This document shows positions 14,411 through 42,306 of a stretch of 64,000 nt of DNA, one piece after another. Origin of the DNA: Escherichia phage KKE7M. Below the pieces are notes generated by a model, which was given only the letters and a program-made list of their open reading frames with translations, ran no database searches and had not been told where the DNA came from. Where the stretch lies: the sequence record PQ356295.1, one strand, 5' to 3'. Numbering within the stretch: position 1 is the first letter of the stretch; each line of letters opens with the position of its first letter. Made by a program: the position numbers and the translations under genes.

Positions 14411-14478
14411 TTTACTTTTCGTAAAAAACATGCTACCCTAATCTTATATACCGAGCGATAGCGAGGTAGAGAATATTC
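14411..14478 (+). repeat. copy A of a ~65-bp element (AAAAACATGCTACCCTAA ... GAGCGA-AGCGAG-TAG)
   Basis: Near-identical to copy B at 42238..42306; lies in a 200-bp gene-free gap. Confidence 0.4.
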
Positions 14479-14559
14479 CATGTTATACATGGAAAGAGTA
14501 TATGTAATGTTACTAACTCTATAACTAACTATATACTCTTTATATCTTACTTACTACTC

Positions 14560-14802
14560 TTATTGCAGTTCAAAGATATCCCCATCTCCATCATATCCAT
14601 ACTCTAACTCTCCTGTATCATATAATACAATAAAGTCTGTATCATCTTCAATAAAAGATTTAGCATAATCTACTAACTCTTCATTATCTTCATAACCTTC
14701 CAGGTACTCAATACGACCATTGATACACTTAGCTGCAACAATTCCTGGGCCATTGCTTGGAGTCCACTCACTGTATACTCGCATCCCTAATTCTTTAATC
14801 AT
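14560..14802 (-). CDS. hypothetical protein (about 80 aa)
   Basis: Start trimmed to ATG with GAGGAGACAAACA RBS. Confidence 0.55.
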   Translation of the reverse strand: MIKELGMRVYSEWTPSNGPGIVAAKCINGRIEYLEGYEDNEELVDYAKSFIEDDTDFIVLYDTGELEYGYDGDGDIFELQ

Positions 14803-15019
14803 TGTTTGTCTCCTCATAATCAATGTAATTGTAACACTTATTCTTTAAGAAATCTTCTGCTTGTTTATTGTGTTTTAGAATGGTGCACTTCTCTATATTG
14901 TGTTCTACATTATTATGTAGCTTGTATAAGTTAGATGCACCATACAGAATACCAATTAACAAAAGCAAAAAGATTGCTGTTGATAACAAAAATTGTTGCA
15001 ACTTGTTTACAGACTTCAT
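14795..15019 (-). CDS. small membrane-anchored protein (74 aa), paralog family B
   Basis: AAGGAGGG RBS; N-terminal TM helix; C-terminal motif shared with 19514..19732. Confidence 0.55.
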   Translation of the reverse strand: MKSVNKLQQFLLSTAIFLLLLIGILYGASNLYKLHNNVEHNIEKCTILKHNKQAEDFLKNKCYNYIDYEETNND

Positions 15020-15072
15020 AAACCCTCCTTATCGTTAGTACATACTGATACTAACAAGAAGTTAAGATCGTG

Positions 15073-15246
15073 TCAACATCTTTGTGTTAATTTTATCCAC
15101 TGTTCACATTCCTCTTTTGTGTCATACTCTACAGGCTTCCCTGTATCATTTCCACAACCATCTCCGAACGTAGCCCACCAGGAGAATAGAAAACAAGTTT
15201 CTCTTACTCTCCACTTATTGGCATAGGGTACAACATAATAACTCAT
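15073..15246 (-). CDS. small Cys-rich protein, about 57 aa
   Basis: ATGA overlap with upstream stop; not in ORF track; coordinates approximate. Confidence 0.4.
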   Translation of the reverse strand: MSYYVVPYANKWRVRETCFLFSWWATFGDGCGNDTGKPVEYDTKEECEQWIKLTQRC

Positions 15247-15494
15247 AAGATTGTGATCCTTAGCTCATTTTCTAAGGTATGTCTCACACACTCTTTGAAA
15301 TTGTTATCAATATACACCACACGTACTCCATGAGGTGTGTCTTTACATTCAAACACATTATATACAGTATCAGATAAGACATGTTGTACGTTTACTTGTC
15401 CAATGCCATCTTTAACCACAACCATTACTTTCAGTAAACTTGTATGGTTTTTAACTTCATCTTCTACGTATGCTACAACATCTTTGATATTCAT
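15243..15494 (-). CDS. hypothetical protein (83 aa)
   Basis: CAGGAGAA RBS upstream. Confidence 0.6.
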   Translation of the reverse strand: MNIKDVVAYVEDEVKNHTSLLKVMVVVKDGIGQVNVQHVLSDTVYNVFECKDTPHGVRVVYIDNNFKECVRHTLENELRITIL

Positions 15495-15790
15495 GGTTTC
15501 TCCTGTTTAAGTACGATATAAGATTGACGAGATTTCCATCGCCCTATCTTAACAAGGCAAATAATGCCTCTCTTTAACAAATATTTCATATCTTCGTCAT
15601 AAGCTGTTTGCAATTGCCACTTACTGTTAACAGGAAGCGAACCATGTACCCTTAAATGAGCTAACAAATACTTTCTTCGCTCTTTTCCATAAGGCAGGTA
15701 TTGCCATTCTTTCTTTGATACAGGTTCATGTACTTTGCGATGCCAGTAAGTAAGGTGTCTTCTTTTATGTAAACCCCTATTCCTTACCAT
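15491..15790 (-). CDS. basic His-rich protein (99 aa)
   Basis: GGAGGTAGAGG RBS; highly basic, His/Arg rich. Confidence 0.55.
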   Translation of the reverse strand: MVRNRGLHKRRHLTYWHRKVHEPVSKKEWQYLPYGKERRKYLLAHLRVHGSLPVNSKWQLQTAYDEDMKYLLKRGIICLVKIGRWKSRQSYIVLKQEKP

Positions 15791-16029
15791 TATACCTCTA
15801 CCTCCGTTACCCCAGGATCTCTAGTCCAGGTGTAGTAGAGCATACCATCTTCTTTCAGTGCAATGCGATCACTTTCGTCTCGAAGATATAGGTCACAAAC
15901 CACACGCAGTTGCGGATCTGATCCTAGTAGTTCGGAAACAATAAAGTCATCACCACTCATACGAGCAACAATCACTGCATATTGACCAGTATCTTCATCA
16001 AAAATTGGTTGTCCGATGTTTAATTGCAT
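15790..16029 (-). CDS. hypothetical protein (79 aa)
   Basis: AAGGAGACAA RBS upstream. Confidence 0.6.
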   Translation of the reverse strand: MQLNIGQPIFDEDTGQYAVIVARMSGDDFIVSELLGSDPQLRVVCDLYLRDESDRIALKEDGMLYYTWTRDPGVTEVEV

Positions 16030-16077
16030 TGTGTTGTCTCCTTATTCAGTACGTTGTTTTGTGCTGCGCACCAGCAC

Positions 16078-16215
16078 TCATAAAAACCTTGGGTTAATGG
16101 CATAGTGTAGTTTCCAGAAGGATCTCTTTCGAGATCCCCCATCTGCATAACAACCACTACCTAAGAACCATTTTTCAAAATCGGATAAATCATCCCAATC
16201 TACACTATGTTTCAT
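16078..16215 (-). CDS. small protein, about 45 aa
   Basis: Internal ATG 1 nt after upstream stop; weak RBS. Confidence 0.3.
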   Translation of the reverse strand: MKHSVDWDDLSDFEKWFLGSGCYADGGSRKRSFWKLHYAINPRFL

Positions 16216-16216
16216 A

Positions 16217-16675
16217 TTATACAGTCTTATACCCGACAATAGCAACCTGATTCGTAGGCTTCCAACGACCAATAATCTCACCAGAAATCTCTGTGCTACT
16301 GTTTATGTATTGGTAATGGGTATCATCATGATTAACCCACGCCATAATGTCAAGGGTAGGGGTTTTCACGTGTACCAGTAGTGTAGCCCATTCTGGGGCT
16401 TCTTTAATATCCACAGAATCTTGCCAATCTTCTTCGATGTGCCAAGTAGGTTCACCATCAACATCTGTAACGAAGAAACGAGCTTTCATACGTTTAAAGA
16501 ACATTGGTGTATACCCATGATCGCACTCTGGGATAAAATCATCCATCGTCTCGTCATAGGTGAAATATTGTCCATCTTTGTAATGAAAAGATGCACAAAA
16601 CAGTTCATTACGAGCAGGAACATGCCATACAGCTACAAAACTACGACCATGTGGATAATGTTTAACCTCTTGCAT
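16217..16675 (-). CDS. hypothetical protein (about 152 aa)
   Basis: Start trimmed to ATG with AAGGAGAAAA RBS. Confidence 0.6.
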   Translation of the reverse strand: MQEVKHYPHGRSFVAVWHVPARNELFCASFHYKDGQYFTYDETMDDFIPECDHGYTPMFFKRMKARFFVTDVDGEPTWHIEEDWQDSVDIKEAPEWATLLVHVKTPTLDIMAWVNHDDTHYQYINSSTEISGEIIGRWKPTNQVAIVGYKTV

Positions 16676-17205: not shown

Positions 17206-17423
17206 TATTCCTCCCATTTTATCCAAAGGCAGTATTCTGGAACATAAACCTCTTTCCCTTTGTTATTCACAAAGGTGTACTCCACAAATTCTGCTTTATA
17301 TGTTTTGTTATATTCCTGTGCTGCTGGCACAGGACATTTTGTAATGCGCGTTTCAGTCCAACGGCGGTGTATAACCGCCTTGTTCTTTGGATCAAACGGA
17401 TGTATAAAGTGTGTTTTACTCAT
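17205..17423 (-). CDS. hypothetical protein (about 72 aa)
   Basis: Internal ATG overlapping upstream gene end by 8 nt. Confidence 0.45.
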   Translation of the reverse strand: MSKTHFIHPFDPKNKAVIHRRWTETRITKCPVPAAQEYNKTYKAEFVEYTFVNNKGKEVYVPEYCLWIKWEE

Positions 17424-25728: not shown

Positions 25729-25787
25729 GGCGGGAAACCATTTCCCGCCTACGTGGTAAATAATACCATACTGGGGATCGGTGTCAA
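25729..25787 (-). promoter_or_regulatory. promoter + leader-hairpin cassette 1 (TTGACA-17-ATTATT then GGCGGGAAA-TGG-TTTCCCGCC)
   Basis: On minus strand: consensus -35, -10, then perfect 9-bp GC-rich hairpin, then RBS and ATG. Confidence 0.6.
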
Positions 25788-25793
25788 TACTTT

Positions 25794-26180
25794 TTATTCA
25801 ATATAAATCAAATTATCTTCACCAATGTAAGCATGCACCGATGGCATTAATTTAGCGGCATTTGTTAGGCGGTTCGCCGTGTTAGTGGTGTATATTTCAG
25901 GGCGATCCCAAAAGCCTACGCCGTGACCGTTACGGGTAAAATGTAAATCATTCCCGATCTGGTTTGCTGTAGCGCCGTCGCTCATTGCCTCAGAGATAGC
26001 TGCAACATTGGCATTACAAAAGGCGGTCACATCGCTGGTAATACGTTTCAGGGCGCTAGAAGAAAAATCATAATCGTCTAGATTCTCAATATATTCCCCA
26101 TTGTGATCCGTCGCTGGTTCGGCAAAAATAAAGGCTTCTTTATAGCCGTTGATCATTTCGTTAATGATTTCTGTTTTCAT
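25794..26180 (-). CDS. hypothetical protein (128 aa)
   Basis: ATGA overlap with upstream gene. Confidence 0.6.
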   Translation of the reverse strand: MKTEIINEMINGYKEAFIFAEPATDHNGEYIENLDDYDFSSSALKRITSDVTAFCNANVAAISEAMSDGATANQIGNDLHFTRNGHGVGFWDRPEIYTTNTANRLTNAAKLMPSVHAYIGEDNLIYIE

Positions 26181-26392
26181 GCTGTACGCTCAACAATAAT
26201 AATGGTTTGCGGGATCTCGTTTTCTACTACTATCAAGGCTTTTTTCTGCGTGATAGATATCTTTACCCGCTTCAGCGTGGCGGTAAAGTCTTTCATTTCG
26301 TCACGTGGTGTTTTAGTGCAATACCAGATCTCAGGTTTACCTATTTGCAAGCCGCGTAAAAATTCCGTTTTACCTGTCTTATTCGTGATCAT
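26177..26392 (-). CDS. hypothetical protein (about 71 aa)
   Basis: ATG with AAGGTGA RBS. Confidence 0.5.
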   Translation of the reverse strand: MITNKTGKTEFLRGLQIGKPEIWYCTKTPRDEMKDFTATLKRVKISITQKKALIVVENEIPQTIIIVERTA

Positions 26393-26402
26393 TTGTTTCA
26401 CC

Positions 26403-26507
26403 TTATCCAATACCGTGGGAAGATAGGATCATGTTAGCCATAGTTGCAATCACTCCAACCGATAACGCCAGGCCCACTATTACAACCGTGAAAATTTTCT
26501 CTAACAT
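26403..26507 (-). CDS. tiny hydrophobic peptide, about 34 aa
   Basis: GAGGGTAGC RBS directly downstream of cassette 2; one TM helix; not in ORF track. Confidence 0.35.
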   Translation of the reverse strand: MLEKIFTVVIVGLALSVGVIATMANMILSSHGIG

Positions 26508-26525
26508 GATGCTACCCTCATTAGT

Positions 26526-26587
26526 GGGCGTTGCCTTATTGCCCCGCCCTATGTGATACATATTATCAGCTTATTAGCCGTTGTCAA
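26526..26587 (-). promoter_or_regulatory. promoter + leader-hairpin cassette 2 (TTGACA-16-TAATAT, variant hairpin)
   Basis: Same architecture as cassette 1; hairpin variant GGGCGGGGCAA...GCAACGCCC. Confidence 0.55.
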
Positions 26588-26692
26588 TTACTTTTTTAAA
26601 CTTCTTTCAAAGAGAAGATCATCGATCTCAGAAACAATAAGCGTTATCAAAGGAATAATAACCGCCGCGCACATCATGGTAAGAATAATCAT
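26588..26692 (-). CDS. tiny hydrophobic peptide, about 34 aa
   Basis: ATG downstream of cassette 3; AGAGAGAA ribosome site; not in ORF track. Confidence 0.35.
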   Translation of the reverse strand: MIILTMMCAAVIIPLITLIVSEIDDLLFERSLKK

Positions 26693-26709
26693 TTTAGTTC
26701 TCTCTATTC

Positions 26710-26769
26710 TGGCGGGAAACCATTTCCCGCCCTACGTGGTACACTTTACCAGATAACCGCATATTGTCA
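26710..26769 (-). promoter_or_regulatory. promoter + leader-hairpin cassette 3 (TTGACA-16-TAAAGT + GGCGGGAAA-TGG-TTTCCCGCC)
   Basis: Identical hairpin to cassette 1. Confidence 0.6.
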
Positions 26770-26771
26770 AA

Positions 26772-26966
26772 CTATTTTTTACAAGGGATCAGTAAACTTC
26801 TCGCTACTGCTTCACGAAAACCTTTACTTTTTATTAGATCTATTGTTGCAGGGTGACAAGTAAAAGCCTTTGACCATTTTTGATCACCTGGTTTACGGGC
26901 GAAAATGTATACTTCCCCGTCAATTTCATCCCAACGAGTATTGCTTGTTAGTTTTTTAAGCGCCAT
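26772..26966 (-). CDS. hypothetical protein (about 64 aa)
   Basis: Start trimmed to ATG preceded by AAAGAGAAATC leader downstream of cassette 4. Confidence 0.5.
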   Translation of the reverse strand: MALKKLTSNTRWDEIDGEVYIFARKPGDQKWSKAFTCHPATIDLIKSKGFREAVARSLLIPCKK

Positions 26967-26987
26967 GATGATTTCTCTTTTAGTTGT

Positions 26988-27045
26988 GAGCGGCACTATT
27001 GCCGCCCTACGCAATACATTCTACCCTATTTATAATTGTTGTCAA
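26988..27045 (-). promoter_or_regulatory. promoter + leader-hairpin cassette 4 (TTGACA-16-TAGAAT + GCGGCA-ATAG-TGCCGC)
   Basis: Hairpin variant retains pairing via compensatory changes. Confidence 0.55.
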
Positions 27046-27046
27046 A

Positions 27047-27316
27047 CTATTTTTTCAAGCTCGCCCAGTCAAAACACGGCGGGATCTCGTTAAAACTTGT
27101 GCCCTGTAAAGCACATAATTTTTTAGCAATAGCCGCCGTGACCTGGCGCTGTACGCGCGGATCTGCTACTGATTGGAGAAAGTAGGCGGCTTTATATGTG
27201 ATCATGCTTTCGCCTGTTTCCTTGTTAACATGATGCACTATTTTAGCCTTATCATCTTTTACCAGGGTGTAACCGGATTCGATGGCCTTGATTGCAACGT
27301 CCAATGATATTTTCAT
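27047..27316 (-). CDS. hypothetical protein (89 aa)
   Basis: AAAGAGATAAATC leader then ATG, directly after hairpin. Confidence 0.6.
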   Translation of the reverse strand: MKISLDVAIKAIESGYTLVKDDKAKIVHHVNKETGESMITYKAAYFLQSVADPRVQRQVTAAIAKKLCALQGTSFNEIPPCFDWASLKK

Positions 27317-27335
27317 GATTTATCTCTTTATTGAT

Positions 27336-27355
27336 GGCGGGGAATACTCCCCGCC
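27336..27355 (-). promoter_or_regulatory. intergenic leader hairpin without own promoter (GGCGGGG-AGTATT-CCCCGCC)
   Basis: GC-rich hairpin between two same-operon genes; no U-tract. Confidence 0.4.
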
Positions 27356-27362
27356 TTATTAA

Positions 27363-27533
27363 TTACTCTTCATCGTCGCCGTTGTAGTATTCAATGCCGT
27401 TTTCATCGGTTACGGTAATATTAACGCCACCGATAGCAACACGATCACGGGCAAACGTCATGGCTTCATTTAAATCTTCAGACCAAAAAATATTGTGACC
27501 TTTGCGCGATACGTAAAACATAGTCGGGATCAT
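27363..27533 (-). CDS. small protein, about 56 aa
   Basis: AGAAGAGAAACAAATC leader then ATG downstream of cassette 6; not in ORF track. Confidence 0.5.
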   Translation of the reverse strand: MIPTMFYVSRKGHNIFWSEDLNEAMTFARDRVAIGGVNITVTDENGIEYYNGDDEE

Positions 27534-27557
27534 GATTTGTTTCTCTTCTGCTGTGAG

Positions 27558-27616
27558 CGGGAAACCATTTCCCGCCCTATGTGATAAACTTTACTACGTT
27601 GTTTGCCTACTGTCAA
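27558..27616 (-). promoter_or_regulatory. promoter + leader-hairpin cassette 6 (TTGACA-17-TAAAGT + GCGGGAAA-TGG-TTTCCCGC)
   Basis: Same architecture. Confidence 0.6.
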
Positions 27617-27617
27617 A

Positions 27618-27902
27618 TTATTTTTTAATGTTTTGCCCTACAAAATTGATCACATCTTTAAGCTGTTTCTCAGTCATGATCGTGCCTGGTAGTTCCTCTT
27701 TGATTTCTTGCGGTAAATAGATATTACCGCGCCAGGTTAATAAACAACCGTTTTGATCTTCGCAGATAGAATAAGAGAAGATCCACTCATTATCATTCTC
27801 AAGCTCCCAAAAGCACAAAAAATCTTCTTTCCCTAAGTTTTCAACGGTTAAGCATAAGCCGCGACGTGCTGCATAGTTGGAAAGTGCTTTTGTGATCTTC
27901 AT
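27618..27902 (-). CDS. hypothetical protein (94 aa)
   Basis: AGAAGAGATAAGAT leader then ATG downstream of cassette 7. Confidence 0.6.
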   Translation of the reverse strand: MKITKALSNYAARRGLCLTVENLGKEDFLCFWELENDNEWIFSYSICEDQNGCLLTWRGNIYLPQEIKEELPGTIMTEKQLKDVINFVGQNIKK

Positions 27903-27921
27903 ATCTTATCTCTTCTGTTAA

Positions 27922-27985
27922 GGCGGGAAAACCATTTCCCCGCTCTATGAGATACAATATACCCCTTATCAGGTGTGCTGTCAAT
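27922..27985 (-). promoter_or_regulatory. promoter + leader-hairpin cassette 7 (TTGACA-17-TATATT + GCGGGGAAA-TGG-TTTTCCCGCC)
   Basis: Same architecture, 1-nt hairpin variant. Confidence 0.6.
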
Positions 27986-28308: not shown

Positions 28309-28329
28309 AATTTTACCCTTTTGTTTGCG

Positions 28330-28528: not shown

Positions 28529-28537
28529 GCTGTTTCC

Positions 28538-28633: not shown

Positions 28634-28637
28634 GGTT

Positions 28638-28940: not shown

Positions 28941-28962
28941 GTAGTTCTCCTTTGTTGTGTGT

Positions 28963-28991
28963 ATCTTATAACGTGCTTTCTATGTTGTCAA
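28963..28991 (-). promoter_or_regulatory. sigma70-like promoter (TTGACA-17-TAAGAT), minus strand
   Basis: -35 overlaps stop codon of upstream gene. Confidence 0.45.
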
Positions 28992-29389
28992 TCTTTTATT
29001 TCGGTGCATTTTGCTAGGGTATACGTTGCAAGTGCTGACACTAGTTTTTCATTGTTACGATCTGCGGCTGTACTGTGTACTTTTTGGATACTTTTTAACC
29101 ACGGTGTAAAATTTTGAGTAGTGAGCACACTGGTAATAATTTCACATGGCACGTTTTCATTTAAGCCATTAACAATAGATTTATCTATTTTTGCCGTTAA
29201 TTGTGTAACAGCACCATAAGCGATCATGTGTGAATCCTCCATGATTTCATCGGGGATCGCATTATTAATGATCATGACGTTTTCCATTGCATCAACGGCG
29301 CTTAATTCTGCTACTGTGGAGGATATCGCCGCGTGAGATGTTCCAACCATGCCAAAAGAGATTAAACCAGCGATCAATAATTTTTTCAT
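28988..29389 (-). CDS. putative secreted/periplasmic protein with signal peptide (about 133 aa)
   Basis: MKKLLIAGLISFGMVGTSHA signal-peptide-like N-terminus; GAGGCAAGAA RBS. Confidence 0.6.
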   Translation of the reverse strand: MKKLLIAGLISFGMVGTSHAAISSTVAELSAVDAMENVMIINNAIPDEIMEDSHMIAYGAVTQLTAKIDKSIVNGLNENVPCEIITSVLTTQNFTPWLKSIQKVHSTAADRNNEKLVSALATYTLAKCTEIKD

Positions 29390-29397
29390 TTCTTGCC

Positions 29398-29580
29398 TCA
29401 TATATGTTTTATTGAGATTATATTGTCACTATATACAACGTTTTTCAACGTGTCAATAAAAATTTTATTGTCTTCAATCCCCAGGATCACGCCGCTAGTT
29501 ATAAAGCCATATTGATCACGATATCTGGCGCATAACCTTTGCCCCTGGGCTAGTGCCTTGCTTATTTCGTCTAATTTCAT
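29398..29580 (-). CDS. hypothetical protein (about 60 aa)
   Basis: Internal ATG preceded by CAGGAGC RBS. Confidence 0.5.
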   Translation of the reverse strand: MKLDEISKALAQGQRLCARYRDQYGFITSGVILGIEDNKIFIDTLKNVVYSDNIISIKHI

Positions 29581-29667
29581 TTTTAAAGCTCCTGTAAAGC
29601 CGTCTAACGTTGATTTATAGGCTTGCCCTGGCGTTACCATTGCCTATGGGTAACAAGCCTCTATATA

Positions 29668-29700
29668 AGCTAAAAGGGCGCTTATTGCGCCCTTTTTGTT
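29668..29700. terminator. bidirectional rho-independent terminator
   Basis: AGGGCGC-TTATT-GCGCCCT hairpin flanked by A-run and T-run. Confidence 0.55.
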
Positions 29701-29836
29701 ATTCGTTCCAGTGTCTTTTTGTGCTGCGATCTCTTTTTGTTTTGTTCCGCTTATCGCCTTTCTTGGTAATCTCTTCGTTCCAATTTTTACGCGCCTTGCT
29801 GCGGTTGAATTTTTCGATCTGCTGTGATGCGTTCAT
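29699..29836 (-). CDS. small highly basic protein, about 45 aa
   Basis: AAGAGGAAAAAAC RBS; K/R-rich; not in ORF track. Confidence 0.4.
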   Translation of the reverse strand: MNASQQIEKFNRSKARKNWNEEITKKGDKRNKTKRDRSTKRHWNE

Positions 29837-29851
29837 GTTTTTTCCTCTTAA

Positions 29852-30211
29852 TTACGCAACGTTATGCTGTTTTGCCAGGGTTACAATCATGCTTGCAATA
29901 TATAACCAATAATTTTCCCTCTCACGGGTAACGGTTGTTTCTTTGCTTGTTTCTTTTATGTACTTCCATTCAATTAACAAGTGATCGATCTCGTTATAAT
30001 CAAAAGCAATATTGACTTCTGACGGTAAACCTTGTAACCATGAGGCTATTGCCTTGATCACGTTATAATTGTAACGTTTTTGATTATCGGGATACCAGTA
30101 TTCAGAGTTAAAACGGCGCATCAGTTCGGTGATCTTTTCTTTTTCGGTTGTAGTACCATCAAAAGAAATAGCCGACACAATGTAAGTTTTAATTGCTTTT
30201 ACTGATTTCAT
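29852..30211 (-). CDS. hypothetical protein (119 aa)
   Basis: AAAGAGATAAGATT leader then ATG downstream of cassette 8. Confidence 0.6.
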   Translation of the reverse strand: MKSVKAIKTYIVSAISFDGTTTEKEKITELMRRFNSEYWYPDNQKRYNYNVIKAIASWLQGLPSEVNIAFDYNEIDHLLIEWKYIKETSKETTVTRERENYWLYIASMIVTLAKQHNVA

Positions 30212-30231
30212 AATCTTATCTCTTTATTGAT

Positions 30232-30290
30232 GGCGGGAAACCATTTCCCGCCGTTGTTGTTACTTTACTTATAAATGATGCTACTGTCAA
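30232..30290 (-). promoter_or_regulatory. promoter + leader-hairpin cassette 8 (TTGACA-17-TAAAGT + GGCGGGAAA-TGG-TTTCCCGCC)
   Basis: Identical hairpin. Confidence 0.6.
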
Positions 30291-30297
30291 GCGAATA

Positions 30298-30468
30298 TTA
30301 TTTATTTTTTAACGTTAATGTTCCCAGCTTATCAGCGTGACGCAGACCAGGAAAGATCCATTTTCCTGATTCATCTTTCACCGGGGCTTTAAGCGTAGCG
30401 CCCAGGTTGGCGGCGTTAACTTTACGTGCAACGTTGCGAGCGGCTTCACGGGTGGCGAAAGTGATCAT
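30298..30468 (-). CDS. small protein, about 56 aa
   Basis: AGAAGAGGAAACATC leader then ATG downstream of cassette 9; not in ORF track. Confidence 0.45.
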   Translation of the reverse strand: MITFATREAARNVARKVNAANLGATLKAPVKDESGKWIFPGLRHADKLGTLTLKNK

Positions 30469-30491
30469 GATGTTTCCTCTTCTCTTTGTTA

Positions 30492-30554
30492 GGCGGTGGG
30501 CTATTCCACCGCCTTAATGAATATAATTTACTTTATTGATGGCCCTGGAGTCAA
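30492..30554 (-). promoter_or_regulatory. promoter + leader-hairpin cassette 9 (TTGACT-18-TAAATT + GGCGGTGG-AATAGC-CCACCGCC)
   Basis: Variant hairpin with compensatory substitutions; -35 embedded in a second short palindrome. Confidence 0.5.
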
Positions 30555-30572
30555 GGCCATCTAAAAATAAAT

Positions 30573-30914
30573 TTACTCGTTTTCTTCCAGCTCTGAAAGA
30601 TCTTCTTTCACTTCTTCGAGCTCTGTCTGCAATTCTTGGTACTCTTCATCGTCCTCAATATCCAGGCTGCCGATGTAGTCGCTAAATCCGCAGCGGTAAG
30701 CGATAGGATCTAACTCCTTGAGGATACGCGACGGAAGAAAAGAAATGTCTCCGATCATAATTTCGCCGTAGATCTCGTCTAACCATTCATCATAGTTTTC
30801 GTCGTACTTGTCCTCGTCGATTTCAAAGTTATCGATCTTGTTCTCAAGGTCTGCGATCTGTTTTTTCAGCGCGGCGATCTGCATAGCTTTTTCTGCGGCG
30901 GTCATAGTAGTCAT
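30573..30914 (-). CDS. acidic coiled-coil protein (113 aa)
   Basis: AAAGGAGAAAAC RBS; Asp/Glu-rich with heptad-like pattern. Confidence 0.6.
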   Translation of the reverse strand: MTTMTAAEKAMQIAALKKQIADLENKIDNFEIDEDKYDENYDEWLDEIYGEIMIGDISFLPSRILKELDPIAYRCGFSDYIGSLDIEDDEEYQELQTELEEVKEDLSELEENE

Positions 30915-30939
30915 GGTGTTTTCTCCTTTTGTGTATTCT

Positions 30940-30994
30940 GGGAAGTTTTCCCGTTTACGTGTTTAAGTATATCGATTTTAGTTATCTTGTCAAT
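30940..30994 (-). promoter_or_regulatory. sigma70-like promoter (TTGACA-16-TATACT) with degenerate leader hairpin
   Basis: GGGAA-AAC-TTCCC mini-hairpin downstream of -10. Confidence 0.45.
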
Positions 30995-31001
30995 ATTATT
31001 T

Positions 31002-31229
31002 TTAGTTTAACTGATCCAGGCACAACAAGCGATCAACATTTAGATCGGTTAGGCTAATCGTTGGCACTTGGTAGGCTTCGATGTACTCAACGCTCGACCA
31101 TTGCCCAAAGTTAGCGACCGCCCAGCTATTCAAGGAGGAGTGAAGATCATCCCCTTTCTTCTCGGTGATAACTGCTACTACCTGGGATATTCCAACCGTG
31201 CCGGATACGCGAACAATAACGATAGCCAT
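31002..31229 (-). CDS. hypothetical protein (75 aa)
   Basis: AAAGAAAGG leader then ATG downstream of cassette 10. Confidence 0.55.
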   Translation of the reverse strand: MAIVIVRVSGTVGISQVVAVITEKKGDDLHSSLNSWAVANFGQWSSVEYIEAYQVPTISLTDLNVDRLLCLDQLN

Positions 31230-31251
31230 AATGTTAACCTTTCTTTGATTT

Positions 31252-31311
31252 GGCGGGAAACCATTTCCCGCCCTATGCGATAAACTATACCAGATTAAAA
31301 AACGTTGTCAA
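31252..31311 (-). promoter_or_regulatory. promoter + leader-hairpin cassette 10 (TTGACA-16-TATAGT + GGCGGGAAA-TGG-TTTCCCGCC)
   Basis: Identical hairpin. Confidence 0.6.
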
Positions 31312-31320
31312 CTGCTTTTA

Positions 31321-31560
31321 TTACATTCCTACCATAGCGGCGCGGATACTGGTTTTACTGAATTTATAGCCATCTGGCGTAGTATTTTGGCCCATTTCGT
31401 TAAGTAGTGACATCATTTCACGCGCGGCGTTATCTTTATTGTTGTTCACGGCTATAAATTCTTTTGCCATATTATAAAAACCTGGATCGTTATTAATCCA
31501 AAGGCTTACATTCCAATGAGTTTTATTTTTGTGACCGTTGTACATTTTAGATTTAGCCAT
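31321..31560 (-). CDS. hypothetical protein (79 aa)
   Basis: AAAAGAGATTAACATC leader then ATG downstream of cassette 11. Confidence 0.6.
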   Translation of the reverse strand: MAKSKMYNGHKNKTHWNVSLWINNDPGFYNMAKEFIAVNNNKDNAAREMMSLLNEMGQNTTPDGYKFSKTSIRAAMVGM

Positions 31561-31585
31561 GATGTTAATCTCTTTTTCAGTGAGG

Positions 31586-31642
31586 CGGGAACTATTCCCG
31601 CTCTCGATATAAGTATTATATGCTTTTTATTCGTGCTGTCAA
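31586..31642 (-). promoter_or_regulatory. promoter + leader-hairpin cassette 11 (TTGACA-16-TATAAT + GCGGGAA-TAGT-TCCCGC)
   Basis: Perfect consensus -35/-10; variant hairpin. Confidence 0.6.
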
Positions 31643-31648
31643 TGCTTT

Positions 31649-32014
31649 TTATAAATCTTTTTTGCGTTTAACATCGCTTGCATGACTGTATACAGCGATC
31701 CCATTGTCACGGCAAAAACGGGAAAGGTAAGCATAATTTGAAAAGTCTTTACCTTCCAGGTTGATAACCTTGCTAAACTCTTCCAGGGCAACGGTATCAA
31801 AATGATCACCATAACCATATTGAAACGGAACGTTAACGACTTCAATCAGTTTACCGCCGATCTCAACGTCAACCATCAAAGAGAAATAAGTATTACCATA
31901 CGACTTTTGAAACCAGCGACGGGCGCTAATATGTACCGCTTCAATGCTGGATAGCTCAATTTTAGCAGTGTTAGCCAGGGTAGCATAAGCAGAAACATTG
32001 ATATTTTTAGCCAT
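31649..32014 (-). CDS. hypothetical protein (121 aa)
   Basis: AAAAGAGATTAAAGAC leader then ATG. Confidence 0.6.
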   Translation of the reverse strand: MAKNINVSAYATLANTAKIELSSIEAVHISARRWFQKSYGNTYFSLMVDVEIGGKLIEVVNVPFQYGYGDHFDTVALEEFSKVINLEGKDFSNYAYLSRFCRDNGIAVYSHASDVKRKKDL

Positions 32015-32040
32015 AGTCTTTAATCTCTTTTGATTAGTTA

Positions 32041-32090
32041 GGAGTATTCCCGATAAAAGTTATTATGCTTGTGCTATCGTTCGTTGTCAA
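32041..32090 (-). promoter_or_regulatory. sigma70-like promoter (TTGACA-17-CATAAT)
   Basis: -35/-10 upstream of 32014 start; hairpin degenerate. Confidence 0.45.
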
Positions 32091-32109
32091 TAGCACAAGA
32101 CTAAAACTT

Positions 32110-32289
32110 TTAACGATAATCATCATAGGCTTTATTGACCTGGCGAATATAGCATTCAAAAGCTAGATCAATAGATTTATATTCACGGATATAATCACCA
32201 TAGGAAACCACATACATTTCTATAGCTTCCTCATATGCCAGGATGATAGAATCTAAACCTACGATCTCAGTCTTTGCAATAATAGCCAT
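32110..32289 (-). CDS. small protein, about 59 aa
   Basis: CTAAGGAATAAAAGC RBS; not in ORF track; coordinates approximate. Confidence 0.45.
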   Translation of the reverse strand: MAIIAKTEIVGLDSIILAYEEAIEMYVVSYGDYIREYKSIDLAFECYIRQVNKAYDDYR

Positions 32290-32348
32290 GCTTTTATTCC
32301 TTAGTAATGTTTCAATCTATATAAGCATTATAGCTTACTGATTTCAGG

Positions 32349-32432
32349 TGTCAAGTGATTTTTTATTTCACCTTATGGGGCGTTGCCCCGCTTTATGTGG
32401 TACATATTACGGGGCTTATTTGCATATGTCAA
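32349..32432 (-). promoter_or_regulatory. tandem promoters (TTGACA-17-TAATAT and TTGACA-16-TATAAT) flanking a GGGGC-AAC-GCCCC hairpin
   Basis: Two consensus promoters 70 bp apart on minus strand upstream of 32289 start. Confidence 0.5.
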
Positions 32433-32435
32433 GCC

Positions 32436-32990
32436 TTACACAATGCAATTTTCATAATTTTTTAGGGCTTGTCTTTTTTCCTCTTCTGTCGGCATGTATG
32501 GCTGGATCTCTTCCTCTTCCAGAGTAGGCATGATTTCTTCCTCTTCCTCCTGGTCGCCCTGGTCTTCCTCTTGCGCTATGGTAACAAGTTTATTGATCTT
32601 CTCCTGGGCTTTAATCAATTTTGCATCTAGCACCATTTTAGCGGTGTTGTATACAGTCCAGGCCATGCGCTTTTCTTCGTATGCCTTATCTAGTGCGGCT
32701 AATTTAGCGGGATACTCTTCCAACACCTTAAAAGCCGGATCAATGTTGTACAAGGGATTATTTTTAGCGTCATCGCTTGGATCTGCGGCGCTTGCAATGT
32801 CAGCGTTACCATTCGCCAGCCATCCAGGACGAACGGATCGCGTCCTGGTGTTGCCGTTGCTCTTTGCCGCTCGATTTCCTATCTGCTCCCCGCTATACCC
32901 TACCATGTGATCGATCATGTCATCTGGTATTATGCGCGGATCATTTGCGTCATGCTTTACCCAGGACTGGATCACATATTCACGCCCCAT
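32436..32990 (-). CDS. hypothetical protein with acidic C-terminal region (184 aa)
   Basis: AGAAGAGG RBS upstream. Confidence 0.6.
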   Translation of the reverse strand: MGREYVIQSWVKHDANDPRIIPDDMIDHMVGYSGEQIGNRAAKSNGNTRTRSVRPGWLANGNADIASAADPSDDAKNNPLYNIDPAFKVLEEYPAKLAALDKAYEEKRMAWTVYNTAKMVLDAKLIKAQEKINKLVTIAQEEDQGDQEEEEEIMPTLEEEEIQPYMPTEEEKRQALKNYENCIV

Positions 32991-32991
32991 G

Positions 32992-33252
32992 CTAGTTCGC
33001 CTCTTCTGTTAGTAGTTTACATACCTTAAACATGCTTGCAGCGTCTTTTGACGGTAGCCAGCCTATTCGATACACTCCAGGATCTGGATTAGTTACATCA
33101 GTCAGTTGCGCGTTGCGATGATTAAAAATAGTGTAACCGCCGCCAGCACGGGGATAAACATTATCTTTAAACCTGATAGCGTATCTCGCCAGGTCGAACG
33201 TTGTAGCATGTTCAAAAGCGATCACATTATCAAAAACTTTTAGAAAAAACAA
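32992..33252 (-). CDS. hypothetical protein (86 aa), TTG start
   Basis: GGGGAGGA RBS 5 nt before TTG. Confidence 0.5.
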   Translation of the reverse strand: MFFLKVFDNVIAFEHATTFDLARYAIRFKDNVYPRAGGGYTIFNHRNAQLTDVTNPDPGVYRIGWLPSKDAASMFKVCKLLTEEAN

Positions 33253-33254
33253 GA

Positions 33255-33401
33255 TTATCCTCCCCAGCGTTTAAAGCCCGTTGCACGGTTATTTTTTAGC
33301 TCTCGTTTTAGTCTCTTGCAACGGTTTACAAGTGCAAACCGTGCCGGAGTCGTAACAGTAGCGCCGTTTTTGGTATGAATACTCATTACATATTGTTTCA
33401 T
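33255..33401 (-). CDS. small basic protein, about 48 aa
   Basis: AGGATAAAACTTT then ATG downstream of cassette 13; not in ORF track. Confidence 0.4.
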   Translation of the reverse strand: MKQYVMSIHTKNGATVTTPARFALVNRCKRLKRELKNNRATGFKRWGG

Positions 33402-33420
33402 AAAGTTTTATCCTATATAA

Positions 33421-33473
33421 GCGGGAACAATTCCCGCTTTAAGATAGCTTATCAGGTTTTAGTGCAATGTCAA
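33421..33473 (-). promoter_or_regulatory. promoter + leader-hairpin cassette 13 (TTGACA-16-TAAGCT + GCGGGAA-TTGT-TCCCGC)
   Basis: Same architecture, variant loop. Confidence 0.55.
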
Positions 33474-33479
33474 CCGTTT

Positions 33480-33842
33480 TTATTCGTAAATTTTACCGCT
33501 TTCTACCCATACCATAACACGGCGCATGTTATCCCATGCATCTTGTTGCAGATTTAAGGCATGCAATTCTTCCGTGGTGCTCATACCTAGAACGGGCTTG
33601 CTATATGTTACAAAGAGATCGCCAGCATATTCATAAGCCAGGGTAAGATCACATTGAATCATCTTTTTAATCATAGCATCAAGCATCATATTAGCGGCAT
33701 GTTGATCACGTTTCAGCGGTAACGTTGCGATCTGTGTGCGATAGCTTTCGATCCGTGCATCCACTGCATCACGCGAAAGGTTTTTCACGTCATCGCGGAA
33801 AGATACCAGATTAAACATGATAGTATTGATTTGCTTGCTCAT
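33480..33842 (-). CDS. hypothetical protein (120 aa)
   Basis: AAAGAAAGGGTAACACA leader then ATG downstream of cassette 14. Confidence 0.6.
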   Translation of the reverse strand: MSKQINTIMFNLVSFRDDVKNLSRDAVDARIESYRTQIATLPLKRDQHAANMMLDAMIKKMIQCDLTLAYEYAGDLFVTYSKPVLGMSTTEELHALNLQQDAWDNMRRVMVWVESGKIYE

Positions 33843-33864
33843 TGTGTTACCCTTTCTTTGATTT

Positions 33865-33924
33865 GGCGGGAAACCATTTCCCGCCTTATGTGGTATATAT
33901 TACCAGATTATTTTTCAGTGTCAA
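33865..33924 (-). promoter_or_regulatory. promoter + leader-hairpin cassette 14 (TTGACA-16-TAATAT + GGCGGGAAA-TGG-TTTCCCGCC)
   Basis: Identical hairpin. Confidence 0.6.
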
Positions 33925-33927
33925 GCC

Positions 33928-34200
33928 TTAAAACAAAAATGCTATATCTTGCGCTTTTAGTGTAGTGTCGATCATTTTCGGGCTTTTATAATCGACAAAG
34001 CGCGCGGTTTTTTCAATAACGAAGCCGAGGTAATCTTGTTTATTGAAATCACATTCTTTTTTAAATGTTTCCCGTGCCACTGTGATCGCTGCGTCCAGGG
34101 ATAAACGTCCATCAATATTGATGTTAGCGAAAGATCCGCCACCGCGCATAGGTTTACCAGTGATACCCTTTACGATCATTGATGCGCTATATGATGCCAT
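33928..34200 (-). CDS. hypothetical protein (90 aa)
   Basis: AGAAGAGAGAAATAATC leader then ATG downstream of cassette 15. Confidence 0.6.
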   Translation of the reverse strand: MASYSASMIVKGITGKPMRGGGSFANINIDGRLSLDAAITVARETFKKECDFNKQDYLGFVIEKTARFVDYKSPKMIDTTLKAQDIAFLF

Positions 34201-34224
34201 GATTATTTCTCTCTTCTGTTATGA

Positions 34225-34280
34225 GCGGCACTATTGCCGCCCTATGTGATACATCTTATCAGATTAAAAAACGTTGTCAA
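34225..34280 (-). promoter_or_regulatory. promoter + leader-hairpin cassette 15 (TTGACA + GCGGCA-ATAG-TGCCGC)
   Basis: Same variant hairpin as cassette 4. Confidence 0.55.
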
Positions 34281-40646: not shown

Positions 40647-40996
40647 AAATTGTACACGATGAAATTCAATTTGAAGAGAGTGATCTTCTTGATCTGGATG
40701 TGACACTAAGTAAACTGATCTACAATGCACTTTCTGCGTATCGTGCAAAAGTGATAGCCACAAACAATGTTAAAATTCCTAGTGGGTTACTTCGTCGGAT
40801 GTACCCACACGCTAAAGGTGACTATCTACCTTATATGGAAGAACGAGCAGCAGAACACTGGTTAGAAATTCTTGAAAAAATGGAGTCTTCTTTTAAGGAC
40901 TCAACTCCACCAGAAGAAGTTAATGAAAAACAACGGCAAGATCGTTTAGAAGGTCGTATTTTGTTTGCTAAGTATTTTCATAACCTGTGGATGTAA
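40643..40996 (+). CDS. hypothetical protein (117 aa)
   Basis: ATGA overlap; GGAGAAGG upstream. Confidence 0.6.
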   Translation: MKIVHDEIQFEESDLLDLDVTLSKLIYNALSAYRAKVIATNNVKIPSGLLRRMYPHAKGDYLPYMEERAAEHWLEILEKMESSFKDSTPPEEVNEKQRQDRLEGRILFAKYFHNLWM

Positions 40997-41008
40997 CAAG
41001 GAGTAAAG

Positions 41009-41164
41009 ATGGTTATCTACAAAAATAAGTTCACTGGCTGTCTGCGTAAATTTATTGACAAAAAAGGGTATGTTTCTGTTGACAATGGTGTTACGTGGGT
41101 GCAAAATGGCACTTCAGAACAACTGATCAGGGCTTTACCTTACTACGAGGAGTCTACAAAATGA
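41009..41164 (+). CDS. small protein, 51 aa
   Basis: ACAAGGAGTAAAG RBS; stop overlaps next ATG; not in ORF track. Confidence 0.5.
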   Translation: MVIYKNKFTGCLRKFIDKKGYVSVDNGVTWVQNGTSEQLIRALPYYEESTK

Positions 41165-41361
41165 CAGAATGGGTAAAAGTAGAAGATCCATACGATATCC
41201 CACTAGGTGAGTATGTGGTGGTAATGGAAGATGGTGGAAAAGGGTATTGTGAAGTGCATAAAAGTATGTCTGGTAAGATTATTGTGGTGAACCATCATTT
41301 TCACTTTGATTACCCTCCCATTGTGGCATATATGCCTTTACCTAAATATGAAGGGGATTAA
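41161..41361 (+). CDS. hypothetical protein (66 aa)
   Basis: CGAGGAG RBS before internal ATG of listed ORF. Confidence 0.55.
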   Translation: MTEWVKVEDPYDIPLGEYVVVMEDGGKGYCEVHKSMSGKIIVVNHHFHFDYPPIVAYMPLPKYEGD

Positions 41362-41508
41362 ATGTTATTCTTTAGACTTAATATTGCTTTTTGTTTGTTT
41401 GCAAATATTGCATTCTGGGTATTGGGTAGTGTAAAATTAGGCTACTTCTTTATTGTACTACAAGCTATTTGTTTAGCTGGTCAAATAATCACTAAGGGGC
41501 GAGTATGA
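41362..41508 (+). CDS. small membrane peptide, 48 aa
   Basis: AAGGGGATTAA then ATG; hydrophobic; stop overlaps next start; not in ORF track. Confidence 0.4.
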   Translation: MLFFRLNIAFCLFANIAFWVLGSVKLGYFFIVLQAICLAGQIITKGRV

Positions 41509-41933
41509 CACAACAAATCCAAGACAAGTTTAATGAACTCTATCCAGCAAGCGAAAGCGGCACTCATAACGTGCGTAAATCGCTCTATAACGTCTTTAAA
41601 GCAGGATGGGAGGCTTGCCTTCAGGCTCAAGAGGAACCAGCGTCAGGGACGCGTAACGGCTTTTATATCCCGATTGTTGAAAGTGAGGAAGGATGGGGTA
41701 GCAAACATGATGGTTATATGGTAGGATTCACCATAGAAGATCTTGAAGAACGCCGTAAAGTCTTTGAGGCAGCTAATACAGAAAAGTATGGCTACTATTA
41801 TGAACGACCTGTTCGTTACATTCCTGTTGTGCTTAGTCCTAAAGCTGTTGAAACAATGTCTGCAACAGAAAAAGAAAGGACTCGCCATTGTGTATGGTTT
41901 GATGATATTGACGATTTTCGATTTGGAGAATAA
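41505..41933 (+). CDS. hypothetical protein (142 aa)
   Basis: AAGGGGCGAGT RBS. Confidence 0.6.
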   Translation: MTQQIQDKFNELYPASESGTHNVRKSLYNVFKAGWEACLQAQEEPASGTRNGFYIPIVESEEGWGSKHDGYMVGFTIEDLEERRKVFEAANTEKYGYYYERPVRYIPVVLSPKAVETMSATEKERTRHCVWFDDIDDFRFGE

Positions 41934-41936
41934 ATT

Positions 41937-42209
41937 ATGAAAAATAAACACCCTTACTATAAATTATTGCATGTACTGCGCCGATTGCGCAATAAACAGA
42001 TTGAAGATTTCCGTCACTTCAAGCGTGATCGTGTGAATCGTCAATGGATGGATCATCGTTTCTTCTCTCTAACTATACGTAAGTTCCGTGAAGAGATTAA
42101 GAAGACAGACCAGGTAATTGCAGGTGCTAAACGTGCAATCTCTATGTCAAAGATCACAGGTGTAAATCATATGTACGACTTCAAAACAGACTCTGTTGTA
42201 CCTATGTAA
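41937..42209 (+). CDS. hypothetical basic protein (90 aa)
   Basis: GGAGAATAAATT upstream. Confidence 0.55.
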   Translation: MKNKHPYYKLLHVLRRLRNKQIEDFRHFKRDRVNRQWMDHRFFSLTIRKFREEIKKTDQVIAGAKRAISMSKITGVNHMYDFKTDSVVPM

Positions 42210-42237
42210 AAGTATTTTGTAAAGTTTTGTGGAGAGT

Positions 42238-42306
42238 ATTGACTTTTTCAGAAAAACATGCTACCCTAAACCTGAAAGGTGACGAGCGAAGCGAGTTAGT
42301 ATTCTC
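42238..42306 (+). repeat. copy B of the ~65-bp element (TTGACTTTTTCAGAAAAACATGCTACCCTAA ... GAGCGAAGCGAGTTAG)
   Basis: Matches copy A at 14411..14478; here begins with TTGACT and precedes a forward gene. Confidence 0.4.

Follow-up and report, generated by a model that had tools for sequence, protein, structure and literature searches.

Two related sequences of Escherichia phage KKE7M (PQ356295.1), both located in a 64,000-nucleotide stretch that is referred to below as the window, belong to a module in which a promoter architecture of the sigma-70 type is followed by a small hairpin with an invariant apex. The module occurs at three genome positions, is found subfamily-wide in the Stephanstirmvirinae and also heads small integrative islands of bacterial chromosomes. 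The repeat is far beyond chance and is a genuine control module, uncharacterised so far. With slightly better than even confidence, we propose that each copy consists of an autonomous sigma-70 promoter and of a structured 5' RNA acting in cis.

The Stephanstirmvirinae (phi92-like and phAPEC8-like phages) are widely isolated and present in therapy collections. No study of their transcription programme was found, and full-text searches retrieved no transcriptome paper for phi92 or for the subfamily. Full-text searches for the exact motifs gave no literature match, the papers containing them being unrelated. The promoter-leader RNA module of Stephanstirmvirinae is best described as undescribed, a variant of the nut/put or 5' stabiliser hairpin theme that stands outside any defined family. 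It ranks among the most conserved noncoding sequences seen here. In the genome it has three fixed positions: it heads the replication block, it heads a prs-NAMPT-tRNA block located at the main divergent junction, and it stands antisense within the early region. Fixed positions and conservation therefore provide a direct handle on temporal control, on RNA stability or antitermination, or on origin firing.

Two Copies in the Window and a Third in the Genome

The window derives from a phi92-like Escherichia coli myovirus (Stephanstirmvirinae, Justusliebigvirus). Its closest relative is phage JohannJBalmer (MZ501084.1; 98-99.9% identity), to which it corresponds as the reverse complement of about 50-114 kb of the record. 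An earlier note on this DNA had placed two related plus-strand sequences at 14411..14478 (copy 1) and 42238..42306 (copy 2). Both are present within 1 nucleotide (nt) of these positions, and the gene neighbourhood confirms that they share the plus orientation although copy 1 lies within a minus-strand gene block. The similarity is longer than the ~65 bp noted; pairwise alignment extends it past these ends, to about 14411-14503 versus 42239-42355, where it includes a second hairpin and the common sequence AGAGTATAT. The two copies share an exact 18-mer, AAAAACATGCTACCCTAA, at 14424-14441 (+) and 42252-42269 (+). No other match to it occurs in the window when up to 3 mismatches are allowed. The chance expectation is 0.14, and at least two matches were obtained in 0 of 100 shuffles.

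Copy 1 is located where two minus-strand early genes, which are homologous to phi92 gp024 and gp023, are separated by 207 bp (14353-14559); this region is about 97% identical to phi92. With its plus orientation, copy 1 therefore runs counter to the early block as a whole. The gap that holds copy 2 spans 42210-42373. As had been noted, this copy opens with TTGACT and precedes a forward gene (42374-42640, +); it stands about 2.2 kb into a long block that contains helicase, NrdD/G, primase and DNA polymerase genes.

The earlier note had named a lack of further copies in the genome among the findings that would refute it. A third copy is indeed present in JohannJBalmer, outside the window, so that a lack of additional copies cannot be held against the element. 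Copy 3 (record positions about 136977-137043) reads TTGACA, 17 bp, TGC-TACCCT and then CGAGCGCAGCGAG; it is located in a 410-bp divergent gap (record 136845-137254) upstream of genes for phosphoribosyl pyrophosphate synthetase (prs), NAMPT and tRNAs. A covariance model of the hairpin, hereafter HP1, was built from 32 sequences. The window contains exactly 2 matches to this model, with scores of 39 and 35.9 bits as against 9.5 for the next best, and the 144.8-kb genome exactly 3; among these matches HP1 never occurs without the promoter.

Two further features of the copy 3 gap may be mentioned. A second, ordinary promoter sequence (TTGACT, 17 bp, TAGAGT) follows copy 3. The gap also coincides with the global minimum of the cumulative GC skew and holds the most A+T-rich 60-mer of the genome (55/60, record position 137135), which makes it a candidate origin or control region.

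A Putative Extended -10 Promoter

Both copies of the window show the features of a sigma-70 promoter of the extended -10 type, namely a -35 hexamer near TTGACA, a spacer of 17 +/- 1 bp, TG at -15/-14 and a TAnnnT hexamer (Table 1). TGC-TACCCT is identical in copies 1, 2 and 3, in Klebsiella phage KP13-26, in Citrobacter phage Tr1 and in Phapecoctavirus ESCO13. In 45 distinct promoter sequences the geometry is kept, with a spacer of 17 or 18 bp; the discriminator is C-rich, and at the 7th position after TACCCT there is in most cases a purine that follows a pyrimidine. The -10 hexamer retains the critical T, A and T; its CCC core is unusual. In a regex promoter list of the JohannJBalmer genome based on TTGACW, TACCCT is found in just two entries, copies 2 and 3, copy 1 being absent because its -35 is TTTACT. 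From this geometry, each copy would be a sigma-70 promoter of the extended -10 type with a predictable start site.

Most instances of the module were collected with patterns that fix TGCTACCCT and the box, that is, the conserved apex of HP1. The copies found by BLAST (KP13-26, Tr1 and ESCO13) retain TGCTACCCTAA and the box in surroundings that are about 70-77% identical, which suggests that the conservation of these two parts is not forced by the search pattern. The idea of a specialised promoter with a conserved downstream box thus survives in part. The -35, the 17-bp spacer, the extended -10 and a purine 7 nt after it are there, and the box is conserved in every copy and in the relatives; the box is not a linear DNA site, since it forms the apex of a covarying plus-strand hairpin.

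The HP1 Hairpin

HP1 begins about 7 nt after the -10 hexamer. Its invariant apex, C-GA-GC-G(N)A-GC-GA-G, comprises a closing C-G pair, tandem G.A/A.G pairs, a helix of two GC pairs and a loop whose first base is G and whose last is A. The minimum-free-energy fold of the plus-strand RNA is HP1, whereas the minus strand gives a poorer fold or none; both the G.U pairs and the folds favour the plus strand. Copy 1 HP1 folds at -7.9 kcal/mol (z -4.0) and matches the covariance model at 14442-14475 with 35.9 bits (E 1e-9). Copy 2 HP1 folds at -6.5 kcal/mol with its first nucleotide paired, and matches at 42273-42305 with 39 bits (E 9e-11). Because flanking bases lengthen the stem, the predicted first nucleotide of the RNA would be at or inside the foot of HP1.

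In the instances collected, many of which are related, 69.3% of the cells of the HP1 stem form standard pairs, as compared with 59.9 +/- 1.5% in shuffles, a value reached in 0 of 500. When the partners are slid, as a control, pairing falls to 35-49%. The covariation score is 0.302, versus 0.151 in shuffles. The pair that adjoins the closing C-G (10-26) is C-G in 16 sequences and A-U in 10, and pair 8-28 is U-G in 13, U-A in 10, C-G in 4 and A-U in 2. The loop has 3-5 nt (GAA, GCA, GATA, GAAA, GGGA, GTAA or GTCTA), and the distance from the -10 to the box ranges from 7 to 16 nt among instances. Such a variable loop length would suit a hairpin and not a site in duplex DNA. The tandem G.A pairs and GNA-type loop of the apex represent a defined and mutable target with which a binding factor could be sought.

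Structures Downstream of HP1

One to three further hairpins are predicted after HP1 (Table 1). In copy 1, HP3 shows compensatory changes (TTTCATG/CATGAAA versus TTCCATG/CATGGAA) in copy-1-type relatives and in islands; read on the minus strand, it scores as terminator-like. HP4 together with TTATATCTT may provide the 3' end of an RNA of about 100 nt, with no canonical G+C-rich terminator. The whole copy 1 RNA (117 nt) folds at -27.1 kcal/mol (z -3.2). When eight copy-2-type leaders are folded to a consensus, a two-part hairpin with compensatory changes is obtained, and downstream hairpins covary in copy-2-type as well as in island-type leaders.

Table 1. Coordinates of the features of the two copies in the window and of the island loci (positions of the island loci are those of the loci themselves)
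Feature	Positions	Strand	Remarks
Copy 1, -35 TTTACT	14411..14416	+	17 bp upstream of TACCCT; same hexamer in all copy-1-type relatives
Copy 1, extended -10	14431..14439	+	TGC 14431-14433, TACCCT 14434-14439
Copy 1, predicted start A	14446	+	7 nt after the -10, preceded by T; predicted from promoter geometry
Copy 1, HP1	14447..14471	+	Outer stem TACC/GGTA around the invariant box CGAGCGATAGCGAG (14452-14465)
Copy 1, HP3	14476..14494	+	TTCCATG-TTATA-CATGGAA; RNA fold
Copy 1, HP4	14494..14540	+	Long, A/U-rich, AAGAGTATAT...ATATACTCTT, then TTATATCTT; RNA fold
Copy 2, -35 TTGACT	42239..42244	+	Regex promoter scan of the JohannJBalmer genome, 17-bp spacer
Copy 2, extended -10	42259..42267	+	TGC 42259-42261, TACCCT 42262-42267
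Copy 2, predicted start G	42274	+	Promoter geometry
Copy 2, start and HP1	42274..42305	+	Imperfect pairing of GAAAGGTGAC and GTTAGTATTC encloses the box CGAGCGAAGCGAG (42283-42295)
Copy 2, HP3	42317..42345	+	GTTCCTG...CAGGAAC; RNA fold
Ribosome-binding site and 88-amino-acid gene	42363..42640	+	AGGAG (42363-42367); gene 42374-42640, MDVTTLRF start; downstream of copy 2
Island locus L172	238-5332		Citrobacter sp. OP27, CP191518.1
Island locus L015	3413-13165		
Island locus L173	1636-7375		

Distribution Among Phages

Relatives were collected by pattern scans of viral, metagenomic and genome collections and by BLAST against cultured phages. The module is present in 125 phage records, which include Justusliebigvirus, Phapecoctavirus, Klebsiella phages and Citrobacter phage Tr1, and in many metagenomic relatives. 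The instances sort into three types that correspond to the three genome positions, and flanking proteins assign distant examples to the same three sites at 35-90% amino-acid identity. The gene for the 88-amino-acid putative membrane protein (MDV...) follows the element in all copy-2-type relatives, and in KP13-26 and Tr1 the copy-3-type element lies before prs-NAMPT. Of the 11 loci examined, at least 7 have the copy-1-type element antisense to both neighbours.

This orthology does not support the earlier suggestion of a small mobile sequence. A mobile repeat resembling a miniature inverted-repeat transposable element was rejected on account of the orthologous sites and of the directional interior, a promoter and then hairpins; terminal repeats were not specifically searched.

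Integrative Islands and Unrelated Contigs

The module heads small integrative islands in the chromosome of Citrobacter sp. OP27 (CP191518.1), in metagenome-assembled genomes (MAGs) of Buttiauxella and Scandinavium and in a 22.8-kb IMG/VR contig. A diverged island form is found in a MAG of an uncultured bacterium. No island-type sequence occurs in 5,426 complete E. coli genomes. In the islands, a tyrosine integrase gene is followed by the module, which is co-directional with it and lies directly after its stop codon. Then come 0.9-1.4 kb of noncoding DNA, two small open reading frames (ORFs), and genes for an EndoVII-like protein, a DUF5906 primase-type NTPase and a resolvase. The 0.9-1.4 kb contain no convincing ORFs, and covarying hairpins are present in their first ~160 nt. 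In L015, the sole island examined that far, an Eco29kI-type restriction-modification pair follows the resolvase. The islands are possibly satellite or defence islands.

The DNA that islands and phage have in common is limited to 40-70 nt, from the promoter through HP1. One island stretch matches a copy-3-type phage element over 38 nt with 100% identity. By tblastn, no protein was consistently common to islands and phage, a single methyltransferase and a single recombinase match being obtained. The promoter and HP1 also occur in two phage contigs (L073, 46 kb, and L016, 84 kb), whose fetched stretches contain no proteins of phi92-like phages. With the fetched stretches of contigs L073, L016, L173 and L024, tblastn detected no proteins in common with the phage.

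These 40-70 nt offer a testable lead to cross-talk between phages and otherwise unrelated integrative islands in enterobacteria besides E. coli. It is conceivable, if rather improbable, that the module is an RNA switch read by the host or by its polymerase, common to the lytic Stephanstirmvirinae and to previously undescribed islands (Citrobacter, Buttiauxella, Scandinavium and an uncultured bacterium). These islands would have copied the phage promoter-leader, through which they might detect these phages, become activated by them or hinder them. The module could equally well be a new put-like cis element that alters the behaviour of the polymerase. Of moderate interest alone, the module would gain in interest if it reflected true phage-satellite cross-talk or a polymerase-modifying RNA.

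Proposed Mode of Action

In the reading that we favour, host RNA polymerase with sigma-70 would recognise the near-consensus -35, the 17-18 bp spacer (a T-tract and then an A-tract) and TGC-TACCCT, and transcription would begin about 7 nt after TACCCT. The first ~30 nt of the RNA would fold at once into HP1, with the 5'-terminal nucleotides paired, and 1-3 more hairpins would follow. HP1 could then act in cis in two ways. It may seal the 5' end of the RNA against 5'-end-dependent decay. Its apex may also dock a factor, because stability alone leaves the invariant apex unexplained. Since the islands and the unrelated contigs keep the module without phage proteins, this factor would be one that all hosts can supply, and the candidates are a host RNA-binding protein and RNA polymerase; lambda nut and HK022 put RNAs serve as precedents. 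The transcripts that carry HP1 would thus be unusually stable, processive or both. Within this reading, protection of the 5' end or binding of a regulator on the one hand, and nut/put-like processivity on the other, appear about equally probable.

Copy 2 would feed the block with the membrane-protein and replication genes, and copy 3 the prs-NAMPT-tRNA block. Copy 1 has no gene that it could serve and would yield either a short, structured RNA or antisense transcripts of the early block; it shows that the module does not depend on downstream coding. As the module exists in islands and contigs that have no common protein in the stretches examined, a phage-encoded transcription factor, envisaged by the earlier note, seems neither needed nor indicated. 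An N-like protein of the phage, on which the islands eavesdrop, is possible.

Several known systems resemble the module in part. Like lambda nut, HP1 is a small hairpin with a purine-rich G...A loop, located just after strong sigma-70 promoters, and a few paralogous copies head long transcription units. In the lambda N leader, a larger hairpin is found between the nut hairpin and the ribosome-binding site, an arrangement that copy 2 shares. Unlike nut, however, HP1 forms the very start of the predicted RNA and is conserved together with its promoter, and copy 1 heads no operon. The boxB hairpin of lambda has a 5-bp stem and a GNRA-like pentaloop, whereas HP1 has a loop of 3-5 nt on a 2-bp helix above tandem G.A pairs. 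Moreover, no boxA is found by either copy: between promoter and HP1, no 9-mer matches CGCTCTTA or TGCTCTTTA with at most 1 mismatch. The nearest boxA-like match (14534-14542) is about 70 nt 3' of HP1, and the window total of 44 is near the chance expectation of 34.8. Among eight neighbour proteins, no N-like protein was recognised, none of the eight giving an informative match in Pfam or PHROG; the screen covered these neighbours and not the entire proteome.

The putL and putR sites of HK022, which the module may resemble, are structured RNAs that act in cis directly after early promoters, are paralogous and need only host RNA polymerase. An action of this kind, involving the polymerase only, would explain the presence of the module in islands and contigs without common proteins. 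HK022 put is a two-stem element of about 70 nt. Unlike put, copy 1 has no downstream genes.

The resemblance with 5' stabilisers such as the ompA 5' untranslated region (UTR) lies in the predicted start at, or within a few nt of, the hairpin foot and in the paired 5' end. The 13 early promoters in the window have this design as well, with a different, G+C-rich hairpin that begins a few nt after the predicted start. Stabilisers of this type need structure and not sequence, whereas in the module an apex of 12-14 nt and the -10 are invariant across genera. The RfaH ops element (GGCGGTAGnnTG) is also a leader element of about 12 nt that forms a mini-hairpin, with a C:G pair, a G.A pair and a 2-nt loop. 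By manual alignment, GCGATAGCGAG of copy 1 agrees with GCGGTAGCGTG of ops at 9/11 positions; no match to GGCGGTAGnnTG with up to 2 mismatches is found at 14446-14475 or at 42274-42305. RfaH reads a T of ops that copies 2 and 3 do not have. In addition, the outer-stem covariation of the module reaches beyond a transcription bubble.

A number of points weigh against the combination of promoter and cis-acting 5' RNA. Stabilisation alone fails to explain the invariant -10 (CCC) and apex, and antitermination fails to explain copy 1; no conserved terminator is present downstream of copy 2 in copy-2-type relatives, and boxA is missing at both copies. TACCCT agrees with the -10 consensus at just 3/6 positions, because of which a generic promoter scan misses the site, and the start site and the RNA ends are predictions. 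In L073 and L016 the outer stem starts 2-3 nt after TACCCT, so that it would be partly upstream of a standard start site. The nearest-neighbour energies of HP1 alone are modest in copies 2 (z -1.6) and 3 (z -0.3), and the outer stem is irregular, one position being G.G in most copy-3-type sequences. Since the search patterns required TGCTACCCT and the box and many sequences are related, the invariance and the shuffle statistics are inflated; the slid-partner control and the copies found by BLAST constitute fairer evidence. Finally, RNA and non-template DNA have the same sequence, and covariation cannot separate them.

Alternative Readings

One alternative is that the copies are promoter-primed replication origins, of the kind known from T4 oriF/oriG, the T7 primary origin and ColE1 RNA II, where the promoter transcript need not encode anything. 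The RNA would be a primer, and a very stable mini-hairpin of the GCGAAGC type in the displaced non-template DNA strand would sustain an R-loop in A+T-rich DNA; the three copies would be three origins, and the islands would carry one in order to replicate. Both d(GCGAAGC) and tandem sheared G.A pairs in a Y-GA-R context are classic DNA motifs of unusual stability, which suits this idea. Copy 3 lies at the global GC-skew minimum, with the most A+T-rich 60-mer (55/60) within about 100 nt downstream; however, GC skew follows gene orientation and has a second local minimum at the other divergent junction, and the A+T-rich block abuts the -35 of the second promoter, of which it could be an UP element. 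The orientation of copy 1 is independent of gene direction and A+T-rich DNA follows it, but copy 2 is without such a stretch and is followed, after a covarying hairpin, by a ribosome-binding site and a gene about 100 nt downstream. A candidate unwinding element, taken as A+T-rich DNA at most ~100 bp downstream, is present at copy 3, partly present at copy 1 and absent at copy 2. In the islands, the module is upstream of the 0.9-1.4 kb without long ORFs and then of the EndoVII and DUF5906 primase-type NTPase genes, as an origin might be. On the other hand, several downstream hairpins covary with G.U pairs, as in functional RNA, and folds of HP1 with DNA parameters are weak, though the model includes no special loop bonuses. 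Overall, we hold three origins to be unlikely.

Two signs of an origin or of a genome end near copy 3 were examined and rejected. The ACTAAC/CTAACA 'iterons' reduce to a single CTAACA triple after copy 3, which is not significant (about chance, p ~0.1 by a rough estimate). As for genome ends, the 'repeat_region' of phage inny is just a 26-bp feature, and the record end of phage ALITA is uninformative.

A second possibility, to which we assign a similarly small probability, is that the three loci deliver a trans-acting small RNA or protein decoy of ~100-150 nt, derived from a 5' UTR in two cases. Through its HP1 apex this RNA would titrate or recruit a protein of the host or of a defence system, or else it would base-pair with targets. 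This reading fits copy 1 best, which is wholly intergenic, runs antisense to the gene on either side in those examined relatives where the case is clear, and would give an RNA that folds into three hairpins (z -3.2); copies 2 and 3, by contrast, run directly into genes. Paralogous copies with an invariant apex would suit a protein-binding RNA, and the island RNA is long and highly structured. Yet no canonical terminator marks a 3' end in copy 1 or its relatives, the relatives having no U-run, and outside HP1 the sequence between the hairpins is poorly conserved, with no evident seed. No Rfam family was matched by the window or by 7 related loci, two local scans at E up to 10 giving chance-level matches only; tRNA and tmRNA scans gave no match. 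Lambda oop RNA offers a partial parallel to copy 1, as a stand-alone promoter inside an early operon that is opposed to it and faces the 3' end of the upstream gene. Unlike oop, the predicted copy 1 RNA overlaps the intercistronic region alone unless it reads on, no clear terminator is seen, and elsewhere the module heads mRNAs.

Less probable still is a control site at the DNA level, in which a regulator (a phage middle-gene activator, a repressor or an alternative sigma such as sigma-S) would recognise TGCTACCCTAA, the box or both, together with the T-tract/A-tract spacer, the copies forming a temporal promoter class and the hairpin being incidental. Simple sigma-70 use does not call for an invariant CCC in the -10 or an invariant C at -13, and sigma-S has a preference that resembles them (-13C, C at -8, A/T-rich DNA after the -10). 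Many spacers contain a T-tract/A-tract inverted repeat, such as TTTTTC-A-GAAAAA in copy 2. The variable distance from the -10 to the box (7-16 nt), the loop of 3-5 nt and flanks that covary as a stem are, however, unlike a duplex site. Just beyond the downstream end of the copy 1 gap, the other strand carries genes whose annotation is that of putative transcription factors; still, the small neighbour proteins have no recognisable DNA-binding family, and no protein is common to the phage and the islands, or L073 and L016, in the DNA examined.

That the repeats are parts of small protein-coding genes (bas62_0168 and bas62_0091 of JohannJBalmer) is very improbable, and coding and chance together hardly less so: there are ORFs at 14356-14490 (-, 44 amino acids) and 42227-42364 (+, 45 amino acids), annotated as CDS in MZ501084.1, and many records have a 'hypothetical protein' under the element, but the two ORFs are on opposite strands relative to the homologous DNA and so cannot give related proteins, phi92 is annotated without a gene in the copy 1 gap, copy 3 is in an unannotated gap, and conservation peaks in the promoter and the hairpin apex and tracks base-pairing, not codons. 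The two ORFs are probably annotation artefacts, and the module flags spurious 'hypothetical protein' calls across many deposited genomes. A short ATG frame inside HP3 was also discarded, as it is not conserved in-frame among relatives and has no convincing ribosome-binding site.

Other Observations

The 88-amino-acid protein encoded after copy 2 looks like a membrane protein; its sole family match is PHROG 18381, of unknown function. In many copy-2-type leaders (L130, L146, L151, L156 and similar; alignment columns 47-80), the second hairpin repeats the HP1 design, as CC-U-GA-CACUC-GUA-GAGUG-GA-A-GG, with a stem, tandem G.A pairs, a 5-bp helix and a GUA loop. The motif of tandem G.A pairs and GNA loop may thus be used twice per copy-2-type leader.

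Downstream of copy 1, four terminator-like hairpins are antisense to early genes (15693-15705, 16385-16400, 17314-17334 and 17363-17379, all +). A 4-kb scan detected 8 terminator-like sites on both strands, as against 1.7 expected. The four plus-strand hairpins could stop or punctuate antisense transcription from copy 1.

A second family of promoters with a 5' hairpin is represented by the 13 early promoters on the minus strand (window 25730-34280; for example 34225-34280, 33866-33924, 27557-27616 and 25730-25787). These have TTGACA, a spacer of 16-18 bp and TAnnnT. Each is followed, at a distance of 8-13 nt from the -10, by a G+C-rich hairpin that is nearly the same throughout, GCGGG-AAATGGTT-TCCCGC with variants. 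One such unit precedes almost every small early gene.

The apex CGAGCGnAGCGAG is also found, without a -35, within palindromic repeats of the form GTCATTCC...GGAATC in Chloroflexota and other metagenomic contigs (L121, L123, L131, L144, L165, L175 and L178). These matches show a wider use of the apex motif. As candidates for the module, the GTCATTCC-GAGCGnAGCGAG-GAATC hairpins were rejected: they have no -35, and TGCTACCCTA probably co-occurs by chance with an abundant repeat. Looser pattern matches in IMG/VR, mostly in G+C-rich coding DNA, were set aside as mostly due to chance.

Some host assignments may deserve attention. A 453-bp 'Lysobacteraceae' contig and a 'Proteobacteria' MAG contig (L176 and L170) carry the same module sequence as Phapecoctavirus ESCO13, and these assignments look doubtful. 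So does the host of four records named 'Campylobacter phage' (host C. jejuni; MG065645.1, MG065650.1, MG065656.1 and MG065689.1), which contain the module; MG065645.1, MG065656.1 and MG065689.1 show about 98% identity to the present phage across the copy 3 region.

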